A stretch of DNA of 27,572 nucleotides from Candidatus Iainarchaeum sp. (lineage in GTDB: Archaea > Iainarchaeota > Iainarchaeia > Iainarchaeales > DTGL01), in the NCBI GenBank assembly GCA_038886995.1, contig JAWALG010000011.1:1-27572 (forward strand), in the 5' to 3' direction. How positions within the stretch are numbered: position 1 is the first letter of the stretch; every line of letters begins with the position of its first letter. Made by a program: the position numbers and the translations under genes. Below the pieces are notes generated by a model, which did not search any database, was not told the DNA's origin, and worked only from the letters and a program-made list of their open reading frames with translations. Shown one piece after another: positions 3,192 through 27,473 of this stretch.

Positions 3192-3866
3192 ATGGCAATG
3201 TATTTTGTTTTTATGGGGCCGCCGGGCTCAGGCAAAAGCACAATGGCTAAAAAGCTTGTAGAGGAGTATGGTCTGGCTCACTTTTCAACAGGCGATATAA
3301 TAAGGGAAAAAATAGCTAAGGACAAGAAGTTCAAAGAAATGTTTGAAGGTCTTATAAAAGAAGGAAAGCTTCTTGATGATGAAAACACCAAGAAACTTCT
3401 TCTCGAAAAGCTTAAACAGAGCAAAATAGAAAATGGCTTCATACTAGATGGCTACCCCAGGACGGTTAAGCAAGCAGAGGACCTGGGAAGCATACTAGCC
3501 GAGCTAAATGCAAAGCTCGATTTAGTAGTTTATTTTAGGTTATCTGAAAGTGCAGCCGTGGAGCGTCTTTCCAACAGGCTTTATTGCCCAAAATGTTCAA
3601 AGGTTTATAACCTTGCAAGCGTTAAACCAAAAAAAGAAGGCATTTGCGATGACTGTGGCTCTGAGCTTAAAGTCAGAGCAGATGATATGCCAGAAGCAAT
3701 TATAAAGCGCTTTCGCGAGTATGAGGATAAAACAAAGCCGCTTCTGCAGCACTACAAGAAAAAAGGCCTCTTAAAAGAAATAGATGTTGACGACGAAGTA
3801 GATGCAAATTATAAAAAAATAAAGTCAGTGGTGGAGCAGGTAAAGAAAAAGAAAAGGAAAAAGTAA
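3192..3866 (+). CDS. adk: Adenylate kinase (long Zn-LID type)
   Basis: GPPGSGKST P-loop, HFSTGDIIR, GFILDGYPRTVKQA, LID CPKC...CDDC, RADD. SD AGGTG upstream. Confidence 0.95.
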   Translation: MAMYFVFMGPPGSGKSTMAKKLVEEYGLAHFSTGDIIREKIAKDKKFKEMFEGLIKEGKLLDDENTKKLLLEKLKQSKIENGFILDGYPRTVKQAEDLGSILAELNAKLDLVVYFRLSESAAVERLSNRLYCPKCSKVYNLASVKPKKEGICDDCGSELKVRADDMPEAIIKRFREYEDKTKPLLQHYKKKGLLKEIDVDDEVDANYKKIKSVVEQVKKKKRKK

Positions 3867-3877
3867 ATAAGCCGGTT

Positions 3878-5578
3878 TCACTCACTCTGCTCCGGCTTCC
3901 CCCTTTTAGGATATTTTCTGTGTAGCAATGACTTTGCTTTCTTCGATCCCGGGCTTTGGAGAAATGTTTCATAAACCTTTTTTAATTCTGGGTTTTGGTG
4001 GCACAGCCTTATCTTTTTGCTTTCATCTATTGAATATACTGCCTTTGCCCTTTTCTCAATTGTTTCCCAGTCAACTGGTTTTGGCTGGCCACCGCCGCCA
4101 ATGCAGCCGCCAGGGCAGGCCATAACCTCCACAAAATCAAATCTTTCACCATTTTTTATCCTTTCAATTATCTCTCGTGCTTTTCCCAATGTGTGCACAA
4201 CCGCACCCCTGATCTTTTTTTCACCTATGTTTACCTCAAATTCTCTCAAGCTTTGTGTTCCACGGACTGGTTTTATTACTGGATCCGACATTTCTTTGTC
4301 TTCCATATAAAAGTGTGCAGTTCTTAGCGCGGCCTCCATAACACCGCCAGTAACTCCGAAAAGTGCGCCACCACCTGTGCTTTCGCCTAGAGGGCAATCA
4401 AAGTCAGCTGCCTTTAACTTTGCTGGATTTATTTTCCTTCTTTTTAGCAGTAACCCAAGCTCCCTCGTGGTTAGAACATAGTCAATGTCCTTATTTTGGG
4501 ATGCATTTATGCCAATGAGTTTGGCTTCCCTTTTCTTTGCAGTGCATGGCATTATAGAAACACTTATTATGTCATTGGGCTTCAAACCTATTTTCTCTGA
4601 ATAGTATGTCTTTATAAGTGCACCAAGCATCATCTGTGGGCTTTTAGTTTCCGAAAGCTTGCTTATAAGTTCGGGATAAAACTCACAGCAGAAATCAATC
4701 CAGGCAGGGCAGCAGCTAGTAAACATTGGCAAGTTGCCTTTTTTGAACCTCTCAACAAACTCCGTTGCTTCTTCTACGATGGTTAAGTCAGCAGAGAGGT
4801 TTGTATCAAAAACTGCATCAAAGCCAAGCTTTTTCAGTGCGGCAACAACTTGTCCAGTTATTATTGTTCCCGGTTCAAGGCCAAAGCATTCGCCCAAGGA
4901 GACCCTTACTGAGGGTGCTAATTGCACAACTTTAACCTTTCCCTTTGTTTTTAACGCATGCTCTACTTTGCTTACGTTTGATGCTTCTGTAATTGCATCC
5001 GTGGGGCAAAATAATGAGCATTGGCCGCAAGAAACACAGTTCGTGTATTTTAGCGGCTGGTTCTCACTGCCAACAACTATTGTTGAATATCCTCGCCCCA
5101 TATAAGATAGTGCATTTACTGTTTGCATTTTTGAGCATGCTTGCACGCATCTGCCGCAGACAATGCATTCATCCATGCTTTTCCAAACTGCTGTGCTTGA
5201 CCTATCTTTGTCCTTTACAACCTCGTGTTTATATGTTGGCTTTTTTAGTCCAACAATTCGCATCACCCTTGTAAGCTCATTGTCCTTTCTCAGAGTTTCC
5301 TTTGGCACAGTTGATGCAATAAGGTTTAATGCTTCTATCCTAAATTTTCTTATTATTTCAGAATTCGTAACTACTTGCATTTTATCTTCTGCAAGAGTGT
5401 CGCAGGCAGTTACTATTTTTCCATTGGCTTCTACTAAACAAACCCTACACCTGCCCTCAGGCCTTAGCATGCTGTGGTAGCACAGCGTAGGTATGTCTAT
5501 TTTGTTTGCCTTCGCTACTTGAAGTATTGTTTGGCCTTTTTCAAACTCCAATATTTTACCATCAATTGTCAGCGGCAT
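3878..5578 (-). CDS. hydA: [FeFe]-hydrogenase catalytic subunit (group A; N-terminal [2Fe-2S], 2x[4Fe-4S], H-domain, fused small subunit)
   Basis: PTLC..CRVC..TAC [2Fe-2S]; CIVCGRCVQAC and CVSCGQCSLFCP; H-cluster motifs L1 FTSCCPAW, L2 MPCTAKKRE, L3 EVMACPGGCIGGGGQP; APSVR; FGVTGGVMEAALRTA; C-terminal HQNP..Y..L..P..LLH. Confidence 0.96.
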   Translation of the reverse strand: MPLTIDGKILEFEKGQTILQVAKANKIDIPTLCYHSMLRPEGRCRVCLVEANGKIVTACDTLAEDKMQVVTNSEIIRKFRIEALNLIASTVPKETLRKDNELTRVMRIVGLKKPTYKHEVVKDKDRSSTAVWKSMDECIVCGRCVQACSKMQTVNALSYMGRGYSTIVVGSENQPLKYTNCVSCGQCSLFCPTDAITEASNVSKVEHALKTKGKVKVVQLAPSVRVSLGECFGLEPGTIITGQVVAALKKLGFDAVFDTNLSADLTIVEEATEFVERFKKGNLPMFTSCCPAWIDFCCEFYPELISKLSETKSPQMMLGALIKTYYSEKIGLKPNDIISVSIMPCTAKKREAKLIGINASQNKDIDYVLTTRELGLLLKRRKINPAKLKAADFDCPLGESTGGGALFGVTGGVMEAALRTAHFYMEDKEMSDPVIKPVRGTQSLREFEVNIGEKKIRGAVVHTLGKAREIIERIKNGERFDFVEVMACPGGCIGGGGQPKPVDWETIEKRAKAVYSIDESKKIRLCHQNPELKKVYETFLQSPGSKKAKSLLHRKYPKRGKPEQSE

Positions 5579-6690
5579 TTTCTCACAAACTCCTCTCTGA
5601 AGTGTCTAAGTGATGTCATTATGTGCAATGGCATTGATCTGCCCAAGGCACAAAATGATGCAGCAGATACAAAACTGCAAAGTTCCTCTAACTCCTTGAG
5701 GTCTTTCATTGTTGCCTTCCCAGAAGAAATTCTTTTAATATACTCTAAAATCCTCTTTGAGCCCTCGCGGCATACCATGCAATAACCGCAGGACTCATGT
5801 ACAAAGAATCTCTGTATGCTTTCACAAAGCTCTACAATTGAGTGCGTGTGGTTTACTACAATTATTGTCCCTGAGCCAAAGAAGCAGCCTCTTTCTCTAA
5901 CATTTTCTTCGGTTAACTCCATACACGGATCATATGGCATTATTCCTCCAGAAGCGCCAAAGCAAAGCGCTTTTGGTATGCCTATTGGCTTTGCTTCATC
6001 AACAATTTTCCCTAGCTGCTTGCCTTCATATATCTCAAAAACCCCTGGTTTTCCCAGGTCTCCTGAGAGAGAGCACAGACGCTTTTTCGGATCAAATCTC
6101 CCAAGAAATATAAGAGGCACCACAGCAAGGGTTTCAACATTATTAACAACAGTTGGCGAACCGAAAAGGCCTTTTTCAGCAGGATAAGGAGGTCTTTTTC
6201 TTGGCTCAGGCCTATGCCCTTCAATTGAGTTCAGTATTGATGTTTCTTCGCCACAGATGTATGCACCTTGCCCAATCACAGTTTTTATCTGAAGGCCTAT
6301 TTTCTCCATCATTGGCTTAGCTTCTCTTATTGCCCTCTTTATCTTGGGCAAAAAATGTTCGTATTCGCCACGGAGATATATGTATGCTTGCTTTGCGCCG
6401 ACAGCATAGCTCGCAATAATTATGCCCTCAACCACATTCAATGGCACGGTTGTCAATATAAGGCGGTCTTTAAATGTGCCAGGTTCACCTTCATCCGCGT
6501 TGCATATCACATAGTGTTCCCCTTGTGTCTTAGCACATATCTCCCACTTAAGGCCTGTTGGGAATCCTGCGCCGCCACGGCCTTTAAGCCCAGAGCTTTT
6601 CACTGTCTCAATAACTTCTGATGGGGTTTTGCTAAGTGCGATCTCAACGCCTTTGAGGTTTGACTCCGAGATTAGTTTTTTTTCTGTCAT
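5569..6690 (-). CDS. hydB: NuoF-like NADH/FMN-binding hydrogenase beta subunit, short form (373 aa)
   Basis: GLKGRGGAGFPTGLKW, NADEGEPGTFKDR, GAYICGEETS, NNVETLA, ESCGYCMVCREG..SFCALG [4Fe-4S]. Overlaps hydA by 10 nt. Confidence 0.93.
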   Translation of the reverse strand: MTEKKLISESNLKGVEIALSKTPSEVIETVKSSGLKGRGGAGFPTGLKWEICAKTQGEHYVICNADEGEPGTFKDRLILTTVPLNVVEGIIIASYAVGAKQAYIYLRGEYEHFLPKIKRAIREAKPMMEKIGLQIKTVIGQGAYICGEETSILNSIEGHRPEPRKRPPYPAEKGLFGSPTVVNNVETLAVVPLIFLGRFDPKKRLCSLSGDLGKPGVFEIYEGKQLGKIVDEAKPIGIPKALCFGASGGIMPYDPCMELTEENVRERGCFFGSGTIIVVNHTHSIVELCESIQRFFVHESCGYCMVCREGSKRILEYIKRISSGKATMKDLKELEELCSFVSAASFCALGRSMPLHIMTSLRHFREEFVRKCR

Positions 6691-7106
6691 TTGAGAGACC
6701 TCAAAAGCTCATCTATTTTTTTTGTAGTTACATTTGCGACTGGCTTTCCATCAACAAGCATGGCTGGTGCTTTGTCACAAAGCCCAATGCAAGAGGTTTT
6801 TCCTAGGTAGAACCTCTTGTCCTTCGTGGCTTGCCCAAGCTTTACTTTGAGTTTCTTTTCCAAGTATCTCACAATCTTTTCTGAGCCCTTCAGGTGGCTT
6901 GTGGGGCAGTCGCAGACAAGTATGCTGTGCTTTGCCCTTTTTTCAAGGGTTAGGAAAGAGTAAAAAGTAGCCGTACTGAAAACCTCACTCTCAGGCATGC
7001 AAACTTTTTTTGCAATTTTTTCAAGCTCTTTTTTTGAAAGCCGACCTTCTTTTTTTTGTGCTTTGCCAAGTTCGTTCAAAAGAAGTTCCTTATTCTTGCT
7101 TTTCAT
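6687..7106 (-). CDS. hydC: NuoE-like thioredoxin-fold [2Fe-2S] hydrogenase gamma subunit
   Basis: EVFSTATFYSF, VCDCPTSHLKGSEKI, TSCIGLCDKAPAMLVDG. ATGA overlap with hydB. Confidence 0.9.
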   Translation of the reverse strand: MKSKNKELLLNELGKAQKKEGRLSKKELEKIAKKVCMPESEVFSTATFYSFLTLEKRAKHSILVCDCPTSHLKGSEKIVRYLEKKLKVKLGQATKDKRFYLGKTSCIGLCDKAPAMLVDGKPVANVTTKKIDELLRSLK

Positions 7107-7167
7107 AAAGAAAAGAAAAACAGCAAAATATTTAAAGCAGAACTGTATTTATTTATGGGTGAGTAGG
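7107..7167. promoter_or_regulatory. Divergent promoter region shared by hydCBA and the membrane-protein gene
   Basis: TATTTAAA at 7129-7136 reads as a TATA box on both strands. It lies about 23 nt from the hydC ATG (leaderless spacing). GGTGA SD at 7158-7162 precedes ATG 7168. Confidence 0.55.
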
Positions 7168-7698
7168 ATGCAGTCCTTTTCCTATTCAAATTCAACTAAA
7201 TACGCTGAATTTTATAAGATGTTAGAAGGCCTTGGCTATGGGCTGTTTTGTTTCTTTTTGCCTTTCTTGCTAAGCCATTCGCAGCAGCAGCTTATTGTCG
7301 GCACTCTTGTAAATGCAATGCTTGTTTTATCTGCAATACGCCTAAGGATGCGCTACTCAATGCCCGCAATTTTTCTTCCTTCGTTAGGTGTTGTAAGTGC
7401 AGGCATGCTTTTCGGAAACCTCACTCAGTATCTTATCTTGCTTGTGCCTTTTATCTGGATAGGCAACTTTGCATTAGTTTCTGTCTTTAAGAAGATGAGC
7501 CGTAGGCCTTTTCACATAAGGGCTCTTTCAGCGGCTGCTTTGAAGGCCTCGCTTCTTAGCATCGCGACCTTTGCCCTTGTTCTTTTTTCATTAGTTCCTA
7601 GCGCGCTTCTGGTTCCAATGTCCTTGGTGCAGTTTGTGACTGCTTTGTCTGGCTCTGCTTTGGCATTTGCAATGCTTAAAGGCCTTAAATTAGCTTAA
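7168..7698 (+). CDS. Integral membrane protein (176 aa, ~6 TM), ECF transporter S-component-like
   Basis: Hydrophobic throughout. QQLIVGTLVNAMLV, LPSL, VPFIWIGNFALV and QFVTALSG resemble a recognisable S-component-like family. Start at SD-supported ATG 7168; the ORF track's 6997 start overlaps hydC. Confidence 0.65.
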   Translation: MQSFSYSNSTKYAEFYKMLEGLGYGLFCFFLPFLLSHSQQQLIVGTLVNAMLVLSAIRLRMRYSMPAIFLPSLGVVSAGMLFGNLTQYLILLVPFIWIGNFALVSVFKKMSRRPFHIRALSAAALKASLLSIATFALVLFSLVPSALLVPMSLVQFVTALSGSALAFAMLKGLKLA

Positions 7699-11362: not shown

Positions 11363-11435
11363 GGGCCCGTAGCCTAGTGGACAAGGCAGCAGCCTTCTAA
11401 GCTGCAGATCGGGGGTTCGAATCCCTCCGGGCCCA
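11363..11435 (+). tRNA. tRNA-Arg(TCT), intron-less, CCA not encoded
   Basis: Acceptor GGGCCCG/CGGGCCC, D-arm GCCT/AGGC, anticodon arm GCAGC-CT TCT AA-GCTGC, T-arm GGGGG-TTCGAAT-CCCTC, followed by ATTTT. Confidence 0.96.
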
Positions 11436-19912: not shown

Positions 19913-20296
19913 TTACACCTGCCCATCATCAACTTGTTTTTTCTCTTCAACTTTTTGCTTCTTTTGATTTTCTTCTTTTTCCTCTGGTTCTTGTTCAGGC
20001 TCCTTTTGTTCAATGAGCTCCTTAAGCAATGGCAAGAATGTTTTAGTGCGCACCATTTTTTTGACGATAGTACCTGACATTGTATTTGGGGTATATGCCC
20101 CACCTGCAAACTTTGCTTTGCACTTCCTGCAGAAGAAAATCCCTGTTGATATTCTTTTTACAGATTCTGACTCACATTTTGGGCAAGTATGCTTTTTTCT
20201 TTGTTTTGACTCAACTTCAACAACGCTTTCTCTTATGGCTTTTCCATATCTTGGCCCAAAACGGCCGGCATATTTTACTTTCTTTGTGTCTCCCAT
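19913..20296 (-). CDS. rpl37ae: 50S ribosomal protein L37Ae (eL43) with charged C-terminal extension
   Basis: AGRFGPRYG..R, CPKC..VKRISTGIFFCRKC..KFAGGAYTP. Confidence 0.95.
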   Translation of the reverse strand: MGDTKKVKYAGRFGPRYGKAIRESVVEVESKQRKKHTCPKCESESVKRISTGIFFCRKCKAKFAGGAYTPNTMSGTIVKKMVRTKTFLPLLKELIEQKEPEQEPEEKEENQKKQKVEEKKQVDDGQV

Positions 20297-20318
20297 ACGA
20301 CTCCCCCACTTTGCAAGT

Positions 20319-21125
20319 TTAGTCTTCTCCTGCTAAGACCTCCTTAAGCTTTGACCTCAGTTCTTCCGCCTTTTCGAATGCCATTTCAAGGCAGCTTTCC
20401 AACTCTTGTTGTGTAAACTTTCCGGCAAGCCCTTTCTGCAGAGCGCAGAGCTGCTTGCCCTCGGTTGACCCTATGGAGATCCTCGCGTCTGCTGCCTTTT
20501 CTTCACTTATAGCAGCATCTGCAACTATCGTATTCCCAATCTTGAAGAATGTTGTCAGCAACGGAAGGCAGCTCAACTCAAGTTTACCAGAATATTCATT
20601 TTTTACTATCTTGTCACCATCTATCTTTGGAATCTTTGCAGTAAGAAGTGCGCCAAGCGCTGCAAGTGAGCTTGCATCAAAAAGATTGCCAGCATCGTTT
20701 ACCACATAAACATCTATGGTCACGATCCAGGCCTTTGTGGCCTCTTCTATAAGAAGCTGCTTGAAGTCAAGCGCTTTGCTTTCCCTTATGCATCTGTCAA
20801 CTACCCTTGCAAGCTCTATTGAGTATTCATCAGGAGGCCCAGTTTCGAATATGGGCGAAGCCATTGGCGTGAACTCAGCACCAACACTTATTGAACCCTC
20901 ATCAGGAGAATCAGGATAAGGTGTGCCTATTTCCATCTTTATCCCAGCGATTACGTCTGTTTCTCCAATGTTAACACGGCATGAGCCATCAGCGTTCTTT
21001 GAAAATTTTGGTGTTATTGAAATTGGTCTATATTCCGTCAATGCTCTGCCATCCACTCTTTTACCTTTCGCAAGGTAGGCCTTTGCCTTTTCACCTTGCA
21101 GCTCAAATAAGATATCATCCCTCAA
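20319..21125 (-). CDS. rrp42: Exosome complex component Rrp42
   Basis: GKRVDGR..EYR, ADGS..V.IGET.V.AGIK..PYPDSPDEG, GPP..IELARVVDR.IRES, GNLFDA, QKG. Start at TTG 21125 after GGTGA SD. Confidence 0.93.
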   Translation of the reverse strand: MRDDILFELQGEKAKAYLAKGKRVDGRALTEYRPISITPKFSKNADGSCRVNIGETDVIAGIKMEIGTPYPDSPDEGSISVGAEFTPMASPIFETGPPDEYSIELARVVDRCIRESKALDFKQLLIEEATKAWIVTIDVYVVNDAGNLFDASSLAALGALLTAKIPKIDGDKIVKNEYSGKLELSCLPLLTTFFKIGNTIVADAAISEEKAADARISIGSTEGKQLCALQKGLAGKFTQQELESCLEMAFEKAEELRSKLKEVLAGED

Positions 21126-21915
21126 GGAAATCACCACCTTGTGGCTCTCCGCCACTGCTTTCAAGACATTCCATCTCCTCATTTAGGGCTTCTATTGCCT
21201 TTTTTTCTTCACCCTCGATGTGCTCATATTTTTCTTTTATTGCTTTCTTCTGAATTTCATATACCTGCATGCACCCATTTAGCCCTAATTGAAAAGCTTT
21301 TTTCCATTCATCTAAGGTTAAAAGGCCATCCATCTGAAGAAGAACAACCTCCTTGTTTCTTGGCAATATTGCCATTGGCATATCGACTGCGTCTTCAGCG
21401 TCTTCTTCCTCTTTGCACGGGTCCAATATAAGCTGCCCATTGGCACGGCCAACAGCGCAAGCAGGTACAAGGTCTCTCATTGGTATGCCTGCATCAGCAA
21501 GTGCAACACTCGCTGCTGTGAGCGCAGCACATCTTGTGCCAGCGTTGCTGTCGAAGAGATATGCATATATGTCAATTGTAGTGTTTGCGAACCTCTCAAC
21601 AAAAATTGCGCTTTCTAATGCTTCTCCAGATACCTTAGATATCTCTATTTCTCTACGCCCCGGCTTTGCACTCTTTCTTTCAGGTACTGAAAAGGTAGCC
21701 ATCCTGTACACGTAATTTACGAGTGCCTTTGTCGGATTTTGTATGTGTTGCGGCAATGCTTCTCTTGGGCCAAAAACGCCAACAATTGCCTTATTCTGGC
21801 CCCACTCTATATAAGCTGAGCCATCTGCCCTGGTAAGAACGGATGGCACAATTTTTATACTTCTAAGCTCATCGATCTTCCTTCCATCAGGCCTTTCATA
21901 ATTTGCTTTTTCCAT
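21115..21915 (-). CDS. rrp41: Exosome complex exonuclease Rrp41
   Basis: RPDGR..ELR, RADGSAYIEWG, FGPRE, YRMATFSVPERK, RREIEISKV, AGTRCAA, ALADAGIPMRDL, D-x5-D, LLQMDG. GAGGTG SD before ATG 21915. Confidence 0.95.
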   Translation of the reverse strand: MEKANYERPDGRKIDELRSIKIVPSVLTRADGSAYIEWGQNKAIVGVFGPREALPQHIQNPTKALVNYVYRMATFSVPERKSAKPGRREIEISKVSGEALESAIFVERFANTTIDIYAYLFDSNAGTRCAALTAASVALADAGIPMRDLVPACAVGRANGQLILDPCKEEEDAEDAVDMPMAILPRNKEVVLLQMDGLLTLDEWKKAFQLGLNGCMQVYEIQKKAIKEKYEHIEGEEKKAIEALNEEMECLESSGGEPQGGDFLEG

Positions 21916-21925
21916 ATACACACCT

Positions 21926-22552
21926 CTATTCAGATGATGCCTTTTCGCTTAGCATCTTCTGTATTTTAAGCGTAAGGTTGCCTAAGTGGGACTCCCTCTC
22001 TATTTTATCAATTGCCCTTTTAAGCAATTCAATCCCCTGTTCTGTACCCTTAACCCACAAAATGCCGTTCATACCCACAATTACTGAGCATTTAGTCCCA
22101 TTTTGAAGAAGCTTTATCATACTTGCGTTTTTGCCTATGATTCTTGGCACTTTGGTTGGTTCAACAAGTAGGATTTCGCCGCCGTAAAGAGCCCTCACAT
22201 TTGTTAGTGATATTTCATTAATCTCATTTATCTTTGATACTTTAGCGCTTATTATGCTACCTTTTCTTAGCGGAACCCTTATCTCTTCTTTAGGGATGAA
22301 TGAATAATAAAACGAGTTCACATCTACGGCATAAACTGAATATTCCTCAGATACAACGACACCTATTACCAAATCACCTACTTTTGGAATATACCTGCCT
22401 TGCAAGGCAACAACCCTGGCTATGCCTTTATCTGTTCTTGCAATTCCCACGGTTTCAGCATATATCTTGCCGTTTTCCATAAACACATGCTGCCCAAGCC
22501 GTAACCTCGAATCACTTATAAGCTCTCCAGGAACTACAACTTTGGATTCCAT
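21926..22552 (-). CDS. rrp4: Exosome RNA-binding cap protein Rrp4
   Basis: VVPGE, YIPKVGDLVIG S1 domain, KVPRIIGKNASMI KH domain, VGMNGILW, IERESH..LT. Confidence 0.93.
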   Translation of the reverse strand: MESKVVVPGELISDSRLRLGQHVFMENGKIYAETVGIARTDKGIARVVALQGRYIPKVGDLVIGVVVSEEYSVYAVDVNSFYYSFIPKEEIRVPLRKGSIISAKVSKINEINEISLTNVRALYGGEILLVEPTKVPRIIGKNASMIKLLQNGTKCSVIVGMNGILWVKGTEQGIELLKRAIDKIERESHLGNLTLKIQKMLSEKASSE

Positions 22553-23256
22553 CAAGATGCCTCCTTATTCAGAATTTTTATCTGTGCTTCTCCTTGGGTT
22601 AGTTTGCTTATCTTGTCTATTAGCTCTGCTTTCATACCAGCCGGAACCTCAAGTACAGCAATTAATGAACCATCTTTCTGCCATTCCTGCTTTTTTATTT
22701 CATAACTGTATAATATTGGGCTAGCACGCCCAGCATGGTTAGCAGGCACCTTTATTGCAATCTCAAATTTTTCAACAGATATTGGCAACACTCTGCTTAG
22801 CTGTTTTATTATCTTTGTTGCTTGCTCTTCTGCTGGCTCAAATTCATTTATCCCTATTTTTAGTTCATTGATTGCCGTTTCAATCCTTGCTGGTGGGTGC
22901 TGTGCGTTTGTTTGCGGGTTGTAGGCGTTTTTGCAAATTATCTGTATTATCTCATTCTTCTTTTTCTCACGCAACTCTCTTCTCTGTTCAGTGGTGAGTT
23001 GAATCTCCCCCTTTGTTATTATCCTATTTGCGATTTCTGAAATGTTATTTGTACCAAATGCGTCTTTTACTACATGTTCCGACTGCCTTTCGCCCTTTGC
23101 AGCGTCTTTAAAGACCTCGTCAATTGCAAGCAGTTCATCAGTGTTTACTTTTTTACCTTTTTTAACTTCCATGGCTAAGTTGGGGTCCACTAATATTTCA
23201 AACTTTTCACCCTTATAGGTGTAACGTGCTACCACAGCATTTTCAATCTTGACCAT
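22552..23256 (-). CDS. sdo1: Ribosome maturation factor SBDS/Sdo1
   Basis: GEKFEILVDP, VFKDAAKG, GEIQLTTEQRR, NPQT..HPPARIE, KQEW..DGS, VPAG. Confidence 0.95.
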   Translation of the reverse strand: MVKIENAVVARYTYKGEKFEILVDPNLAMEVKKGKKVNTDELLAIDEVFKDAAKGERQSEHVVKDAFGTNNISEIANRIITKGEIQLTTEQRRELREKKKNEIIQIICKNAYNPQTNAQHPPARIETAINELKIGINEFEPAEEQATKIIKQLSRVLPISVEKFEIAIKVPANHAGRASPILYSYEIKKQEWQKDGSLIAVLEVPAGMKAELIDKISKLTQGEAQIKILNKEAS

Positions 23257-23280
23257 TAAAAACCACGCTTTGAAGTAAAA

Positions 23281-24009
23281 TTACTTTGAAACTATGGCCC
23301 GAAGCTCCTTTGCTCCTAGTTTCGTGTATGGCTTTCCATCTTCAATGTATGCAAACTCCAAATTATTTATCTCAAATGCTTCGTTTTTTTCTTTTGTTTG
23401 TTTTATAGTATTAACTATTAGCTTTATGCCGTCTTCAAGTCCAATTTTTTCGCTGTATTTCTTTTCTAGGAAGTCCATTGCCTTCTTTTTGTTTCTACCA
23501 ATTGCGGTTGCCTTGTACTCTGCTAAAGCACCAGATGGCTCTGTTTCAAATATGCGCTTGTTGCCATTGTTTATGCCACCAATTATGAAGCTTATGCCAA
23601 AAGGCCTCATGCCAGCATACTGTGTAAAAACCTGCTTTATTGAGCTTATCTCTTTTGCAAGATATTCAACATCTATAAGTTCATCGTAGTAAATCATGTT
23701 CTCTTGGGCAAGTTCCCTTGCTATCTTTACTAGTCGCCTTGCGTCACCAACAAGCCCTGCGCTTATTGCACCTATGTGGTCGTCTATCTTGAAAAGCTTT
23801 TCAACTGATTCTGGTATCATGAGGTTGCTTGTTATTGCCTTCTCAGCACCGAATAAAACCCCATTTGCATATACAAGGCCTATTCCGAGAGTTCCTTGTT
23901 CAACTATCTTTGAGGCATATTCAACCTGATAAAGTCGCCCCTTAGGCGAGAACATTGTTGCTGCGCGATCATACGCAGACGCCATCTTTGCTCCTTCGTC
24001 TATATACAT
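23281..24009 (-). CDS. psmA: Proteasome alpha subunit
   Basis: YDRAATMFSPKGRLYQVEYA, KIDDHIG..AGLVGDAR, TQYAGMRPFG, EPSG..YKATAIG. GAGGTGA SD before ATG 24009. Confidence 0.95.
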   Translation of the reverse strand: MYIDEGAKMASAYDRAATMFSPKGRLYQVEYASKIVEQGTLGIGLVYANGVLFGAEKAITSNLMIPESVEKLFKIDDHIGAISAGLVGDARRLVKIARELAQENMIYYDELIDVEYLAKEISSIKQVFTQYAGMRPFGISFIIGGINNGNKRIFETEPSGALAEYKATAIGRNKKKAMDFLEKKYSEKIGLEDGIKLIVNTIKQTKEKNEAFEINNLEFAYIEDGKPYTKLGAKELRAIVSK

Positions 24010-24149
24010 TGATTTCACCTCGTTTTAAAACAAAGATTTTAAGCATAAAAAGTTGCCCCAACTGAAGAATTTATATATGATAATAATTTAAATGTTTTCC
24101 AATAGCCCGTAAATTCTTCCTATTTGAAAAAAAGCCCCATTCTATGAAA

Positions 24150-24965: not shown

Positions 24966-27473
24966 GTGAAAAACATGATGGGGCAAAGTAAGAGATTTGG
25001 TTTTAACTTTAAAAATACTCATAAAACTCAAATATTTTTCCTAATTTTGCTATTTTATGTCTTCGCGCTGCTAAGTTTTACTGGCCTTTCCTTTGGGCGA
25101 GTTATTGCTAATGGTAATGGCGGCGGTGGCGGTGGAGGCCAAGAACCACCCTCCGATTCACCCGTGCAGCCCCCCGATTCGCAAGAGCCGCCTGATAATT
25201 GCGAATGTCTTGATCATAGTGACTGTGGTGATTGGTGCTGCTTTGCTTGCGTTTGTGATCCCTGTGCTCCAACTTCATGCACTTCTAATTCGCAATGTGG
25301 TGGTGGCCTTTGCTGTATAAATGGTCATTGCCAGACATGCCCATCTGCTGGTTGTGATAGTGATGCTGACTGCCCCACAGGCCAATGTTGCCAAGGGGGC
25401 AGTTGCACTGCTTGCCCACCTTTAGGTTGCACTACTGATACTGAATGTTCCCCGAATTGCTGCATTAACAACACTTGTCAGCCGTGTCAGCAGCCACCCC
25501 AATGTACATCCGATGCTGACTGCCCCACAGGCCAATGTTGCCAAGGAGGCAGCTGTGTGTCTTGTCAACCACCCCAGTCATGTAGTGATCATGGTTATTA
25601 TTCTACTAATATTGAGTGCGTAAATGACAACAGAACCAGATGTAATTGCTTTGATGCCGTTAGGTGCAGGTCTGTTAATGTTTCCGGCTTAACATGTTTT
25701 AAATTTGATGGTTGCAACAACTCTGCTTGTGCTCCAGGCCAAGACAAATGCAAAGAATATGACTATTACAAAAGTGAGATTGAATGCATTATTGATAACC
25801 AATCTAACTGTCAGTGCTCAGATGCTGTAGATTGCCGTGTAGAATATGTTTGCACTAGAGTGATAAGGGATCCCGAAAGCGGCCCTGAGTGTGCTGCAGA
25901 GATTCAGTGTTATTCATATTCAGGATGCGCAAATTCAAGATGCTGCAAAGAAGAAAAAAAATGCAGGGAAAATTTTGTCTGGCTTTATGATAGCTGTAAC
26001 GGCCCACTTTACGAGGTAGACGATTGTTCAAGATATTCAAGCGCAGGCGATTGTAATATCCAAAGATGTCTTCAAATAACAACCAGCCCTACTTACAAGA
26101 AGACCTATAAAAGTGTAAGAAATGGTGTGTGCGTAGATTCTACTGTTAGCGGGGCTTATTGTACAACTAAAAGCTCAGAAGAGGATTGTGGCATCTCAAC
26201 ATACTGTAGCTTTGGCTGCTCTGAGCAATCAGGCCTTCCAAATTGCCTCCCAAAAGCAATAATAACATCAAGGCCTTCTTTGGAAGAATCTACCAGGACG
26301 ATAAATGTTTTTGAAAATAACAGAGTGGAGCTTTCTTGTTTGGATAGCATAGACCCCGATGGCAATATTTCAAAGTGTGAGTGGGAGATTGGCTCTGATT
26401 ACTATGACTGGATGAGAATAACAGTTAACGCCACTCTTGGTAGTACTAGCGTGAAGCTTAAAGCTTGCGATACTAGTGGCTCATGCGATTACGATTATGC
26501 GATAATAAATGCTGTGAAAAGAAGTGCAACTGACCCACAACAAGATCCAACATCAGAAAATATGCCGCCTTTGGCTTGTTTCGAGGTTTCACCTTCAAAA
26601 GGCCTTCCAGGCATAACTGAATTCACATTTGATGCCTCCTGCTCATCAGACCCTGATGCTGGTGATTTCATAACATCGTATGCATGGAACTTTGGCGATG
26701 GCTCCAAAGCATCAGGGAAAAAAGTAACCCATACATACTCGGATAATGGCTTACAATACACAGTTTACACTGTAACCTTGACTGTTTCAGATAATGGTAA
26801 GGACGGTACAAAACAAAAAATGTCAGGTCTTGCTATGAAAAAGGTTCTGGTTGGCAAAGAGGTTGAAACATTGCGATTAACTGCAAACCCAAACAATGGC
26901 TTTGCACCTTTGGTTGTTTTGTTTGTCGCATCCACCACTGATGGCAAAAATATTTTTACAAGCTATGATTGGGATTTTGATGACGGAATTACTAGAAGCA
27001 ATGGCTATGAGCTGTTCCACGCTTATCGAAGAAAAGGCACGTATTTGGCAAGGGTAATTGCCTCAAGCCCTTTGGGCTATTTTGCAGTGGGCTCTGCAGT
27101 GGTCAACGTTAGCGAAGCAAAAGGAATCACCAATTTGACTGTTAAGGACACCCATCTTTATGGTGTGGCAAGCATTTCAATAAAATGCACATCCTCCGAA
27201 ACTGTTTCGATTGAATTTGGCACAGAGAAAAACAAAATACGCCTCTCGGGCTTTCCATGTAATACAACATCCAATATAGGGCCTCTTGTTGAACCCGGCC
27301 AGTATACTATCAATGCGGAAATTGATGGCTGTGATGCCCTTGAATGCAGACGCTCTGCATCATTTTATGTTTCGCCTGAACTGCCCGAGGTAAAAACAGA
27401 TGAGATTAACACTGCGGCAGTTTTGATAGCACTGCTAATGGTCTTTTTTATTGCTAAGAGATCCGAGCACTAG
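24966..27473 (+). CDS. Secreted/surface protein: Gly/Pro linker, Cys-rich repeats, three PKD-like domains, C-terminal membrane anchor
   Basis: Signal-like hydrophobic N-terminus; C-x5-C-x3/4-CC-x3/4-C-x2-C repeats; SIDPDG..W, FDAS.SSDPD..YAWNFGDG, YDWDFDDG; tail AAVLIALLMVFFIAKR. Exact start uncertain (24966, 24975 or 24978). Confidence 0.85.
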   Translation: MKNMMGQSKRFGFNFKNTHKTQIFFLILLFYVFALLSFTGLSFGRVIANGNGGGGGGGQEPPSDSPVQPPDSQEPPDNCECLDHSDCGDWCCFACVCDPCAPTSCTSNSQCGGGLCCINGHCQTCPSAGCDSDADCPTGQCCQGGSCTACPPLGCTTDTECSPNCCINNTCQPCQQPPQCTSDADCPTGQCCQGGSCVSCQPPQSCSDHGYYSTNIECVNDNRTRCNCFDAVRCRSVNVSGLTCFKFDGCNNSACAPGQDKCKEYDYYKSEIECIIDNQSNCQCSDAVDCRVEYVCTRVIRDPESGPECAAEIQCYSYSGCANSRCCKEEKKCRENFVWLYDSCNGPLYEVDDCSRYSSAGDCNIQRCLQITTSPTYKKTYKSVRNGVCVDSTVSGAYCTTKSSEEDCGISTYCSFGCSEQSGLPNCLPKAIITSRPSLEESTRTINVFENNRVELSCLDSIDPDGNISKCEWEIGSDYYDWMRITVNATLGSTSVKLKACDTSGSCDYDYAIINAVKRSATDPQQDPTSENMPPLACFEVSPSKGLPGITEFTFDASCSSDPDAGDFITSYAWNFGDGSKASGKKVTHTYSDNGLQYTVYTVTLTVSDNGKDGTKQKMSGLAMKKVLVGKEVETLRLTANPNNGFAPLVVLFVASTTDGKNIFTSYDWDFDDGITRSNGYELFHAYRRKGTYLARVIASSPLGYFAVGSAVVNVSEAKGITNLTVKDTHLYGVASISIKCTSSETVSIEFGTEKNKIRLSGFPCNTTSNIGPLVEPGQYTINAEIDGCDALECRRSASFYVSPELPEVKTDEINTAAVLIALLMVFFIAKRSEH
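25362..25546 (+). repeat. Intragenic direct repeat, 35 bp exact, 150-bp period
   Basis: GATGCTGACTGCCCCACAGGCCAATGTTGCCAAGG at 25362-25396 and 25512-25546, within two copies of DADCPTGQCCQGGSC. Confidence 0.9.

Follow-up and report, generated by a model that had tools for sequence, protein, structure and literature searches.

A hydrogenase operon with a short HydB in an Iainarchaeota genome: sequence features of a probable NADH-dependent, non-bifurcating [FeFe] enzyme

The archaeal contig JAWALG010000011.1 (Candidatus Iainarchaeum sp., assembly GCA_038886995.1), hereafter the window, i.e. the whole stretch of 27,572 nucleotides that was analysed, carries an operon, hydC-hydB-hydA, whose three products are predicted to make up an [FeFe] hydrogenase, a cytoplasmic heterotrimer in which NAD(H) is coupled directly and reversibly to H2 with neither ferredoxin nor electron bifurcation involved (rough probability 0.7). 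Such an enzyme would work like Hyd1ABC of Syntrophomonas wolfei. The prediction hinges on the flavoprotein HydB, which is reduced to a minimal NuoF core and which, judged by its sequence, fails every published criterion for bifurcation. The window is one entire contig (27.6 kb) of a genome of 866 kb in 38 contigs, estimated to be 88.6% complete with 0.84% contamination, and all statements below on what the genome lacks refer to this assembled part. The three genes are:

Positions 6687-7106, minus strand: hydC, 139 residues, a NuoE-like thioredoxin-fold [2Fe-2S] subunit (Pfam PF01257, 2Fe-2S_thioredx, 3.8e-36)
Positions 5569-6690, minus strand: hydB, 373 residues, a minimal NuoF-like flavoprotein with a flavin mononucleotide (FMN)/NADH site (Pfam PF01512 and PF10589 only)
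Positions 3878-5578, minus strand: hydA, 566 residues, a group A [FeFe] hydrogenase with a small-subunit-like tail

Going by the coordinates of these open reading frames, hydC and hydB overlap by 4 nucleotides and hydB and hydA by 10, from which it follows that the three genes are coupled. HydA combines the Pfam domains Fer2_4, Fer4 (two copies), Fe_hyd_lg_C and Fe_hyd_SSU, with no extra C-terminal domain, and HydB consists of Complex1_51K and NADH_4Fe-4S and nothing else. All three H-cluster motifs of HydA are present (L1 TSCCPAW at residues 287-293, L2 MPCTAKKRE at 343-351 and L3 EVMACPGGCIGGGGQP at 484-499, compared with the group A wording TSCCPxW, MPCxxKxxE and ExMxCxxGCxxGGGQP), and the protein passes the model TIGR02512 ('[FeFe] hydrogenase, group A') with 472.5 bits at a cut-off of 405.95. 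Its best match among solved structures is HydA1 of Thermoanaerobacter kivui (8a6t_A, 504 bits). A hydA gene accompanied by a nuoF-like gene and a nuoE-like gene is the criterion of genetic organisation by which the surveys cited here recognise group A3. This gene set is the sole A3 criterion that applies to hydCBA, and it fails to separate bifurcating from non-bifurcating enzymes.

The minimal HydB subunit

HydB lacks the N-terminal [2Fe-2S] domain, its NuoF core beginning at about residue 4 with just 6 further open codons upstream, and it lacks the C-terminal 2x[4Fe-4S] domain, the protein stopping at residue 373 after the NuoF [4Fe-4S] region, i.e. with an extension of 0 residues. The open frame around hydB comprises 379 codons and the start of hydA falls within the last codons of hydB, which means that neither a wrong start nor a frameshift can conceal a domain; the short HydB is no annotation artefact. 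A single [4Fe-4S] cluster is left, with the ligands C301, C304, C307 and C347. Solved bifurcating HydB chains, by comparison, are 599-630 residues long (7q4v_B 599, 7p5h_B 626, 8a6t_B 630). Three short motifs lie at positions that have been used to tell the two kinds of beta subunit apart:

Positions 6463-6492, minus strand: HydB residues 67-76, EGEPGTFKDR, with Thr and Lys where bifurcating HydB has Ala/Glu and Met
Positions 6244-6267, minus strand: HydB residues 142-149, GAYICGEE, with Tyr instead of the Phe of bifurcating HydB
Positions 5944-5961, minus strand: HydB residues 244-249, FGASGG, standing where bifurcating HydB has GGPSGG

The aligned equivalents in Acetobacterium woodii HydB (7q4v_B) are EGDPGAFMDR, GAFVCGEE and GGPSGG, and those of the first two motifs in Nqo1 of Thermus are ESEPGSFKDR and GAYICGEE. 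According to Losey 2020 (Thermotoga maritima numbering), bifurcating beta subunits are marked by A/E232, M234, F367, GGPSG in the SLBB region and extra Fe-S domains, and non-bifurcating, NADH-dependent ones by T/S232, K/S/A234, Y367, the lack of GGPSG and fewer Fe-S domains. At these positions the HydB of the window has T, K, Y and FGASG, i.e. the non-bifurcating states throughout, and the bifurcating residue set is absent. In terms of domains, Schut 2022 gives the clusters B2-B5 as present in all true Bfu enzymes and missing from non-bifurcating homologues, and Furlan 2022 gives the same distribution for the C-terminal two-cluster domain of HydB (present in all characterised bifurcating enzymes, missing from non-bifurcating ones).

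A preliminary description of this stretch had proposed a coupled hydC-hydB-hydA set with intact H-cluster motifs, a HydB of 373 residues that lacks both terminal domains and carries the three motifs listed above, and an NADH-only, non-bifurcating enzyme. The genes, their overlaps and the motifs were found as described, the Pfam domains and the 379-codon frame agree on the missing domains, and the functional reading is supported at the level of sequence. The contrast between the two kinds of beta subunit, which the same description treated as established, is indeed in print in the three papers just named; its figure of about 600 residues for bifurcating HydB agrees with the solved chains; and three papers (discussed below) bear out its remark that archaeal HydABC sets are usually taken to be bifurcating.

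A set of 271 HydB/NuoF homologues was collected, from which 3 fragments of fewer than 340 residues were dropped. Among the 268 that were examined, 201 have Thr, Lys and Tyr at the three diagnostic positions (T-K-Y) and no C-terminal Fe-S domain, which is the class that includes the HydB of the window, and 25 combine Ala, Met and Phe (A-M-F) with a Cys-rich C-terminal extension of at least 55 residues. In addition, a Cys that is kept in 93% of 28 bifurcating-type HydBs is replaced by Ser in the HydB of the window, and likewise by Ser in Nqo1; this Cys may be one of the ligands that hold the Zn 'hinge' of Furlan 2022. The best match of HydB among solved structures is in fact Thermus Nqo1 (283.7 bits), compared with 250-276 bits for bifurcating HydB chains.

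In phylogenetic trees the short archaeal HydBs form one clade of 101 sequences (support 0.97-0.98, and 0.994 in a second tree), apart from the bifurcating-type sequences. The clade sits among sequences of the T-K-Y type with weak support for its nearest neighbours (0.73-0.87), and the Syntrophomonadaceae operon that served as a stand-in for S. wolfei joins at a deep node. In place of the characterised sequences of S. wolfei, Syntrophus aciditrophicus and T. maritima, alignments to solved structures and the Syntrophomonadaceae locus served for comparison. The midpoint-rooted tree contains no single clean bifurcating clade.

The same phylum provides a contrast of its own. HydB was found in 12 of its 215 genomes, and it is short in 8 of these, all of them of the window's family (66-100% identity). 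The other 4, from two other families, encode long HydBs of 587-647 residues with both extra domains, i.e. an N-terminal domain with a Cys motif and two C-terminal CxxCxxCxxxCP motifs, and these read either EGDPGAFMNR and GAFVCGEE, or EGDPGVFSNR, GAYVCGEE and GGPSGG. The long HydBs group with a bifurcating-type sequence (support 0.997).

A scan of a genome collection with an alignment of 22 short HydBs was rejected as a guide to distribution. It returned 80 bacterial and 0 archaeal loci, and because DEGEPGTF and Y[IV]CGEET are typical of NuoF, most of these (67 of the 80) were NuoF-like and without an H-domain. The remaining 13, bacterial hydrogenase operons of the T-K-Y type, were gained as comparators.

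Clusters of HydA and HydC, and comparison with known systems

The N-terminal [2Fe-2S] cluster of HydA (ligands C33, C44, C47 and C59) and two [4Fe-4S] clusters (C138-C148 and C181-C191) are retained, as are all ligands of the H-cluster, so that the clusters of the electron wire are complete. What HydA lacks is a further cluster:

Positions 5270-5329, minus strand: HydA residues 84-103, the site of a His-ligated [4Fe-4S] cluster in relatives, here with no Cys or His and with a 4-residue deletion

In the alignment to 8a6t_A, the motif H-x3-C-x2-C-x5-C of T. kivui HydA1 has no counterpart in the HydA of the window. Three things are therefore missing from this HydABC, namely the C-terminal 2x[4Fe-4S] of HydB (the proposed ferredoxin site), the N-terminal [2Fe-2S] of HydB and the His-ligated [4Fe-4S] of HydA. 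The loss in HydA goes together with the short HydB: the His-cluster motif is missing from 8/8 short-HydB loci of the family and kept in 4/4 long-HydB loci of the phylum, and in metagenome loci of the Woesearchaeota type it is missing from all six with a short HydB and present in both with a HydB of 585 residues. It is also missing from 47 of the best 120 HydA matches. All 12 bacterial T-K-Y-type operons examined, one of them from the Syntrophomonadaceae, retain it (the thirteenth, L070, which has an H-domain match, was left out, its HydA being cut off), which implies that reduction has gone further in the archaeal form than in the S. wolfei type. In the Thermotoga enzyme, as Furlan 2022 describes it, the His-ligated cluster connects neighbouring HydA protomers; it lies outside the core path from flavin to H-cluster, and this core path is retained in the enzyme of the window. 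The loss itself is not new, being tabulated in the supplement of Greening 2024 as HydA subclass M3c ('[2Fe2S] - 2[4Fe4S]', without (His)[4Fe4S]), which the Cys pattern of the window's HydA fits.

The best NCBIfam match of HydA is NF040763, 'NADH-dependent [FeFe] hydrogenase, group A6', with 686.6 bits and hence below the cut-off of 765. Archaeal HydAs without the His-cluster score 696-750, and a HydA paired with a bifurcating-type HydB of 585 residues passes at 781. The name of this model was rejected as support for an NADH-only enzyme, as it passes HydAs partnered with non-bifurcating-type and with bifurcating-type HydB alike; its product name can mislead annotation. A side observation concerns L1, which is TSCSPGW in 11/12 bacterial HydAs partnered with T-K-Y-type HydB and TSCCPAW in the window.

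HydC has a non-canonical ligand pattern (C65-x-C67 ... C106-x3-C110), with Ser70 in place of the canonical second Cys. At residues 64-71 it reads VCDCPTSH, and in an alignment with long-type HydC of the same phylum this C-x-C replaces C-x4-C in 7/7 short-type loci of the family. The HydC of genome G053 reads SNCP, the first Cys being lost as well, which leaves 3 of the 4. Among the loci seen the variant is confined to the window's family, and the readable HydCs of the Woesearchaeota type keep C-x4-C. Taken together the clusters amount to about 22 Fe in 1078 residues per trimer, compared with 30 Fe predicted for S. wolfei Hyd1ABC, and among the HydABC-type operons compared here no cluster complement is smaller.

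Like the operon of the window, S. wolfei Hyd1ABC consists of HydA, a NuoF-like HydB and a NuoE-like HydC. Its HydB is short as well (407 residues compared with 373), it is without the N-terminal [2Fe-2S] and the C-terminal ferredoxin-like domain, and it shows the T-x-K and Tyr states. The Syntrophomonadaceae operon used as a stand-in (L033; HydB 407 and HydA 574 residues) is 39% identical to the window in HydB and 41% in HydA. Compared with the S. wolfei type, the window's HydA is without the His-ligated [4Fe-4S], which is a difference of anatomy and not of proposed mechanism; further differences are the shifted Cys pattern of HydC, the archaeal host and the fact that no HydEFG was found in the genome.

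The nearest described relatives are the DPANN 'group A3' HydABC of Huang 2021 and Greening 2024, which share the operon, the [2Fe2S]-2[4Fe4S]-H build of HydA and an adjoining membrane-protein gene; Table S2 of Greening 2024 even contains an Iainarchaeota metagenome-assembled genome with hyd6TM-hydC-hydB-hydA, subclass M3c. Only the reading differs, in that these papers speak of a bifurcating/confurcating enzyme, against which the features of the short HydB argue. The operon type of DPANN and Woesearchaeota has been described, and called bifurcating group A3, in Huang 2021, in Greening 2024 and in a 2024 paper with transcripts; full-text searches outside the subscription journals returned no paper in which the non-bifurcating criteria are applied to DPANN archaeal HydABC. 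The operon type and the M3c HydA are thus already published, and what is added here is the long/short contrast within one phylum, the link between short HydB and loss of the His-cluster, the family-specific ligand shift in HydC, the exclusion of spare subunits and chimerism, and the context of the membrane-bound hydrogenase (Mbh) and pyruvate:ferredoxin oxidoreductase (POR) described below.

The bifurcating HydABC enzymes (T. maritima 7P5H, A. woodii 7Q4V, T. kivui 8A6T) have homologous subunits and the same core wire from flavin to H-cluster. The window differs from them by D->E, A->T, M->K and F->Y at the diagnostic positions and by the conserved Cys that has become Ser, and the core features that define the Bfu family (Schut 2022) are absent. 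The NADH module of complex I (Nqo1/Nqo2, NuoF/NuoE) resembles the window in that it has one flavin and one [4Fe-4S], together with a [2Fe-2S] partner off the path; in the window, however, an [FeFe] hydrogenase takes the place of the quinone module, and Nqo1 exceeds HydB by about 60 residues (438 versus 373 residues). Finally, the hydrogenosomal Hyd-NuoE-NuoF of the fungus Caecomyces churrovis (mBio 2026) likewise joins a hydrogenase to a plain NuoEF with non-bifurcating-type NuoF features, and it was shown experimentally to form H2 from NADH and not from NADPH or ferredoxin, by which the non-bifurcating criteria have recently been borne out in a third lineage. Unlike the window it is eukaryotic, with a NuoF to which that paper assigns a mitochondrial complex I origin, and archaea are not mentioned there.

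Metabolic setting, proposed function and alternatives

Over the whole genome, PF01512 matches HydB only, PF02906 HydA only and PF01257 HydC only. The preliminary description had held that its reading would fall if the missing domains were encoded as separate subunits elsewhere; these were looked for, and no free 2x[4Fe-4S] or [2Fe-2S] subunit was found. The motif scan covered all 8693 stop-to-stop frames of at least 40 codons, and the two other frames with two CxxCxxCxxxCP motifs belong to an MbhN/NuoI-like subunit within the Mbh gene cluster (contig C16) and to the delta subunit of pyruvate/2-oxoacid:ferredoxin oxidoreductase (C20), neither of which is free to serve HydB. For the assembled part of the genome, separate genes for the missing HydB domains are therefore rejected.

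Outside the window, C16:30-6272 encodes a cluster of MnhB-, NuoK-, NuoL-, NuoB-, NuoC-, NuoD-, NuoH- and NuoI-like proteins, the large subunit of which carries RVCGICNICH and DPCMSC, i.e. both Ni-Fe-binding Cys pairs, and HypA is encoded on the same contig (C16:22050-22451). By its sequence this is a complete-looking group-4 Mrp/Mbh-type membrane [NiFe] hydrogenase. Such hydrogenases are ferredoxin-dependent in characterised cases. POR and GAPDH are also present, and no match was found for Rnf, for an Nfn/GltD-type Fer4_20 domain or for a lactate/malate dehydrogenase (Ldh_1_C). The Mbh large subunit occurs in 13/13 genomes of the family and in 0/5 genomes of the two families to which the four long-HydB genomes belong, a co-occurrence with the form of HydB that is descriptive rather than statistical, the lineages being three and kin not being independent. 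Five of the 13 family genomes have Mbh and no HydABC, which makes HydABC accessory. It may be noted that the small genome thus encodes two hydrogenases of different superfamilies, and that in relatives (G050-G054 and others) the matches to the Mbh large subunit have 1-4 stop codons inside the matched stretch, which probably reflects a match that runs past the true start, although some may be pseudogenes.

In the proposed mechanism, which follows homology, NADH would deliver a hydride to the FMN in HydB, from which electrons would pass one at a time to the single [4Fe-4S] of HydB, the N-terminal [2Fe-2S] of HydA, the two [4Fe-4S] clusters of HydA and finally the H-cluster. The [2Fe-2S] of HydC would lie beside the flavin and outside the main path, like N1a of complex I. 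Physiologically, glycolytic NADH from GAPDH would be disposed of as H2, which would be feasible at low H2 only and would thus depend on a consumer of H2 or on an open setting poor in H2. The ferredoxin that POR reduces would be reoxidised separately by the Mrp/Mbh-type hydrogenase. The simplest reading is therefore a division of labour, in which ferredoxin goes to Mbh and NADH to HydABC. This is in keeping with what has been reported for enzymes with this type of HydB/NuoF, since those of S. wolfei and S. aciditrophicus and that of the fungal hydrogenosome (mBio 2026) have each been shown to be non-bifurcating.

Several points weigh against this reading. FGASGG retains G-x-S-G-G and so half resembles GGPSGG, the residue criteria are based on a handful of characterised enzymes, and in two HydBs of the same phylum with the full bifurcating domain set the 'diagnostic' positions are occupied by V/S and Tyr; the residue criteria are thus not absolute, and the domain criterion is the firmer one. 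In HydC, the cluster may have been altered or lost. A missing subunit could be encoded in the 11% of the genome that is unassembled, and the co-occurrence with Mbh spans three lineages only. HydE and HydG gave no match in this 88.6%-complete genome and HydF gave only weak GTPase matches far below the cut-off. Moreover, the prediction is one from sequence, and NADH and NADPH are not distinguishable at this level, so that the preference for NADH is likewise a prediction.

The same chemistry could physiologically run towards H2 uptake, in which case H2 (geothermal, or from the cell's own Mbh) would be converted to NADH, and Mbh and HydABC together would act as an energy-conserving ferredoxin:NAD+ oxidoreductase that replaces Rnf/Nfn by H2 cycling. 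S. wolfei Hyd1ABC runs in both directions, an Mbh-type hydrogenase and POR are at hand, and Rnf and Fer4_20/Nfn were not found. Just one sequencing run contains the greater part of the stretch; it bears the label hot springs metagenome and may come from the source sample. Hot-spring settings can be rich in H2. However, a fermenter that has GAPDH and in which no lactate/malate dehydrogenase was found would need a sink for NADH and not a source, H2 would leak out of small cells and make the cycling leaky, and the five family genomes with Mbh and no HydABC indicate that Mbh is independent of HydABC. This direction is hence considered unlikely, if worth keeping in mind. A broader proposal, advanced here as speculation and with little confidence, is that the two hydrogenases work as a pair: Mbh would burn reduced ferredoxin to H2 while pumping ions, and HydABC would recapture this H2 as NADH or vent the electrons of NADH when H2 is low, which would amount to an H2-mediated Rnf substitute that sets the NADH/ferredoxin balance in a cell without a respiratory chain; the short-HydB DPANN 'group A3' would then be a distinct non-bifurcating subgroup that has been mislabelled.

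The weak or missing maturase matches raise the question whether the operon encodes a working hydrogenase at all, as opposed to an apo-protein, a relic or a protein with another redox role, given that the H-cluster might be unbuildable without HydE, HydF and HydG. This is improbable. All catalytic and cluster ligands are intact, and the hydCBA genes are kept at 60-85% identity, with overlapping reading frames, across eight genomes of the family. The shortage of maturases is also not peculiar to this genome, as Greening 2024 reports all of them for just 5 of 130 hydrogenase-encoding archaeal genomes, with an incomplete set in 3 and none found in 122; another route of maturation is proposed there, and archaeal enzymes were active after artificial maturation. 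Woesearchaeota homologues are, furthermore, transcribed in a lake (2024 paper).

That a coupling of ferredoxin and NADH (bifurcation or confurcation) persists, through an unrecognised site (the HydC cluster in its remodelled form, for example) or with the help of a partner whose gene lies elsewhere, is very doubtful. It would agree with the three papers that place archaeal HydABC in bifurcating group A3 by gene order and HydA phylogeny, the genome does make both NADH and reduced ferredoxin, and both the incompleteness of the genome and the imperfection of the residue criteria leave it some room. On the other hand, all clusters deemed essential by Schut 2022 and Furlan 2022 are absent, no spare Fe-S subunit was found, the His-ligated surface cluster of HydA is lost as well, and ferredoxin has a hydrogenase of its own. 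In addition, every characterised enzyme of this architecture in the literature cited is non-bifurcating, and the accessible text of the A3 papers gives no test of bifurcation for the archaeal enzymes.

If the non-bifurcating, NADH-dependent reading is true, hosts of short-HydB enzymes can vent the reductant of glycolysis as H2 only while H2 is very low (17-40 Pa was the level reached by S. wolfei Hyd1ABC), and short-HydB DPANN archaea would be thermodynamically tied to H2 consumers or H2-poor niches, which would be a concrete reason for partner dependence. Reconstructions that count 'group A3' as bifurcating would then overstate the H2 pressures against which these organisms can work, and classification by gene neighbourhood would need a check of the HydB domains. 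The small cluster complement makes the enzyme a compact candidate for studies of NADH-driven H2 production.

Archaeal origin and neighbouring genes

The preliminary description had also named a bacterial/archaeal chimera as grounds for giving up its reading, and although [FeFe] hydrogenases are mainly bacterial and the operon adjoins an adenylate kinase of the Pfam ADK family with a lid domain, presumably the common bacterial form, the chance that bacterial DNA was fused to an archaeal contig by misassembly or binning is practically nil, given the intact synteny in other assemblies, a composition typical of the genome and the low contamination, and a chimera is rejected. As to synteny, the window is collinear with a 115-kb contig of the same-genus genome G051 in 28 of its 29 genes (GlnA through hydABC to proteasome alpha) and, in 21 of the 29, with the first 20 kb retrieved of a contig of a third genome (G053). 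As to composition, the tetranucleotide profile of the operon correlates with that of the genome at 0.936; 245 other segments of equal length give 0.934 +/- 0.06. The contig also carries archaeal genes (exosome Rrp4/41/42, SBDS, proteasome alpha, L37ae, prefoldin beta and NMD3), and the database proteins that come closest bear the name Candidatus Diapherotrites (Iainarchaeota), with Woesearchaeota next.

The adenylate kinase itself (3192-3866, plus strand) is convergent with hydA and keeps its place in G051 and G053, and it is therefore a resident gene and no sign of foreign DNA.

On the operon's other side two features lie next to hydC:

Positions 7129-7136, minus strand: a TATA-box-like element, TTTAAATA, 22 nucleotides upstream of the hydC ATG, spotted by eye with no statistical test
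Positions 7168-7698, plus strand, divergent from hydC: a HymD-like membrane-protein gene, 176 residues with about 5-6 hydrophobic segments

If the TATA-like element is real, its position would suggest that the hydC transcript is leaderless or nearly so; no RNA dataset is listed as containing the stretch. The HymD-like gene is conserved beside hydC in loci of the same genus; the loci at which it was seen next to hydC are L006, L007, L013 and L016 as well as L102, L105 and L115. In two long-HydB loci it runs in the same direction as hydC and lies directly upstream of it, and in three metagenome loci of the Woesearchaeota type it is divergent. Pfam gives no match for the protein at E up to 10, and NCBIfam none that is significant; leads from the Atlas are clusters named '[Fe] hydrogenase HymD subunit' (score 0.93) and a fold like that of the ECF-transporter S-component (TM 0.82). 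It is probably the 'hyd6TM' of Greening 2024, and its role may be to bring in a cofactor (riboflavin for the FMN subunit, for instance) or to anchor the enzyme.

Further along the window, the genes for L37ae, Rrp42, Rrp41, Rrp4, SBDS and proteasome alpha form a run (19913-24018, minus strand) with prefoldin beta just upstream, in an order that is kept in G051. The only gene of the 29 that is unmatched in the G051 stretch encodes an 835-residue protein with two PKD domains (24966-27473, plus strand), probably a surface protein. The only RNA gene found in the window, by ARAGORN and Rfam, is a tRNA-Arg (TCT) at 11363-11435 on the plus strand.

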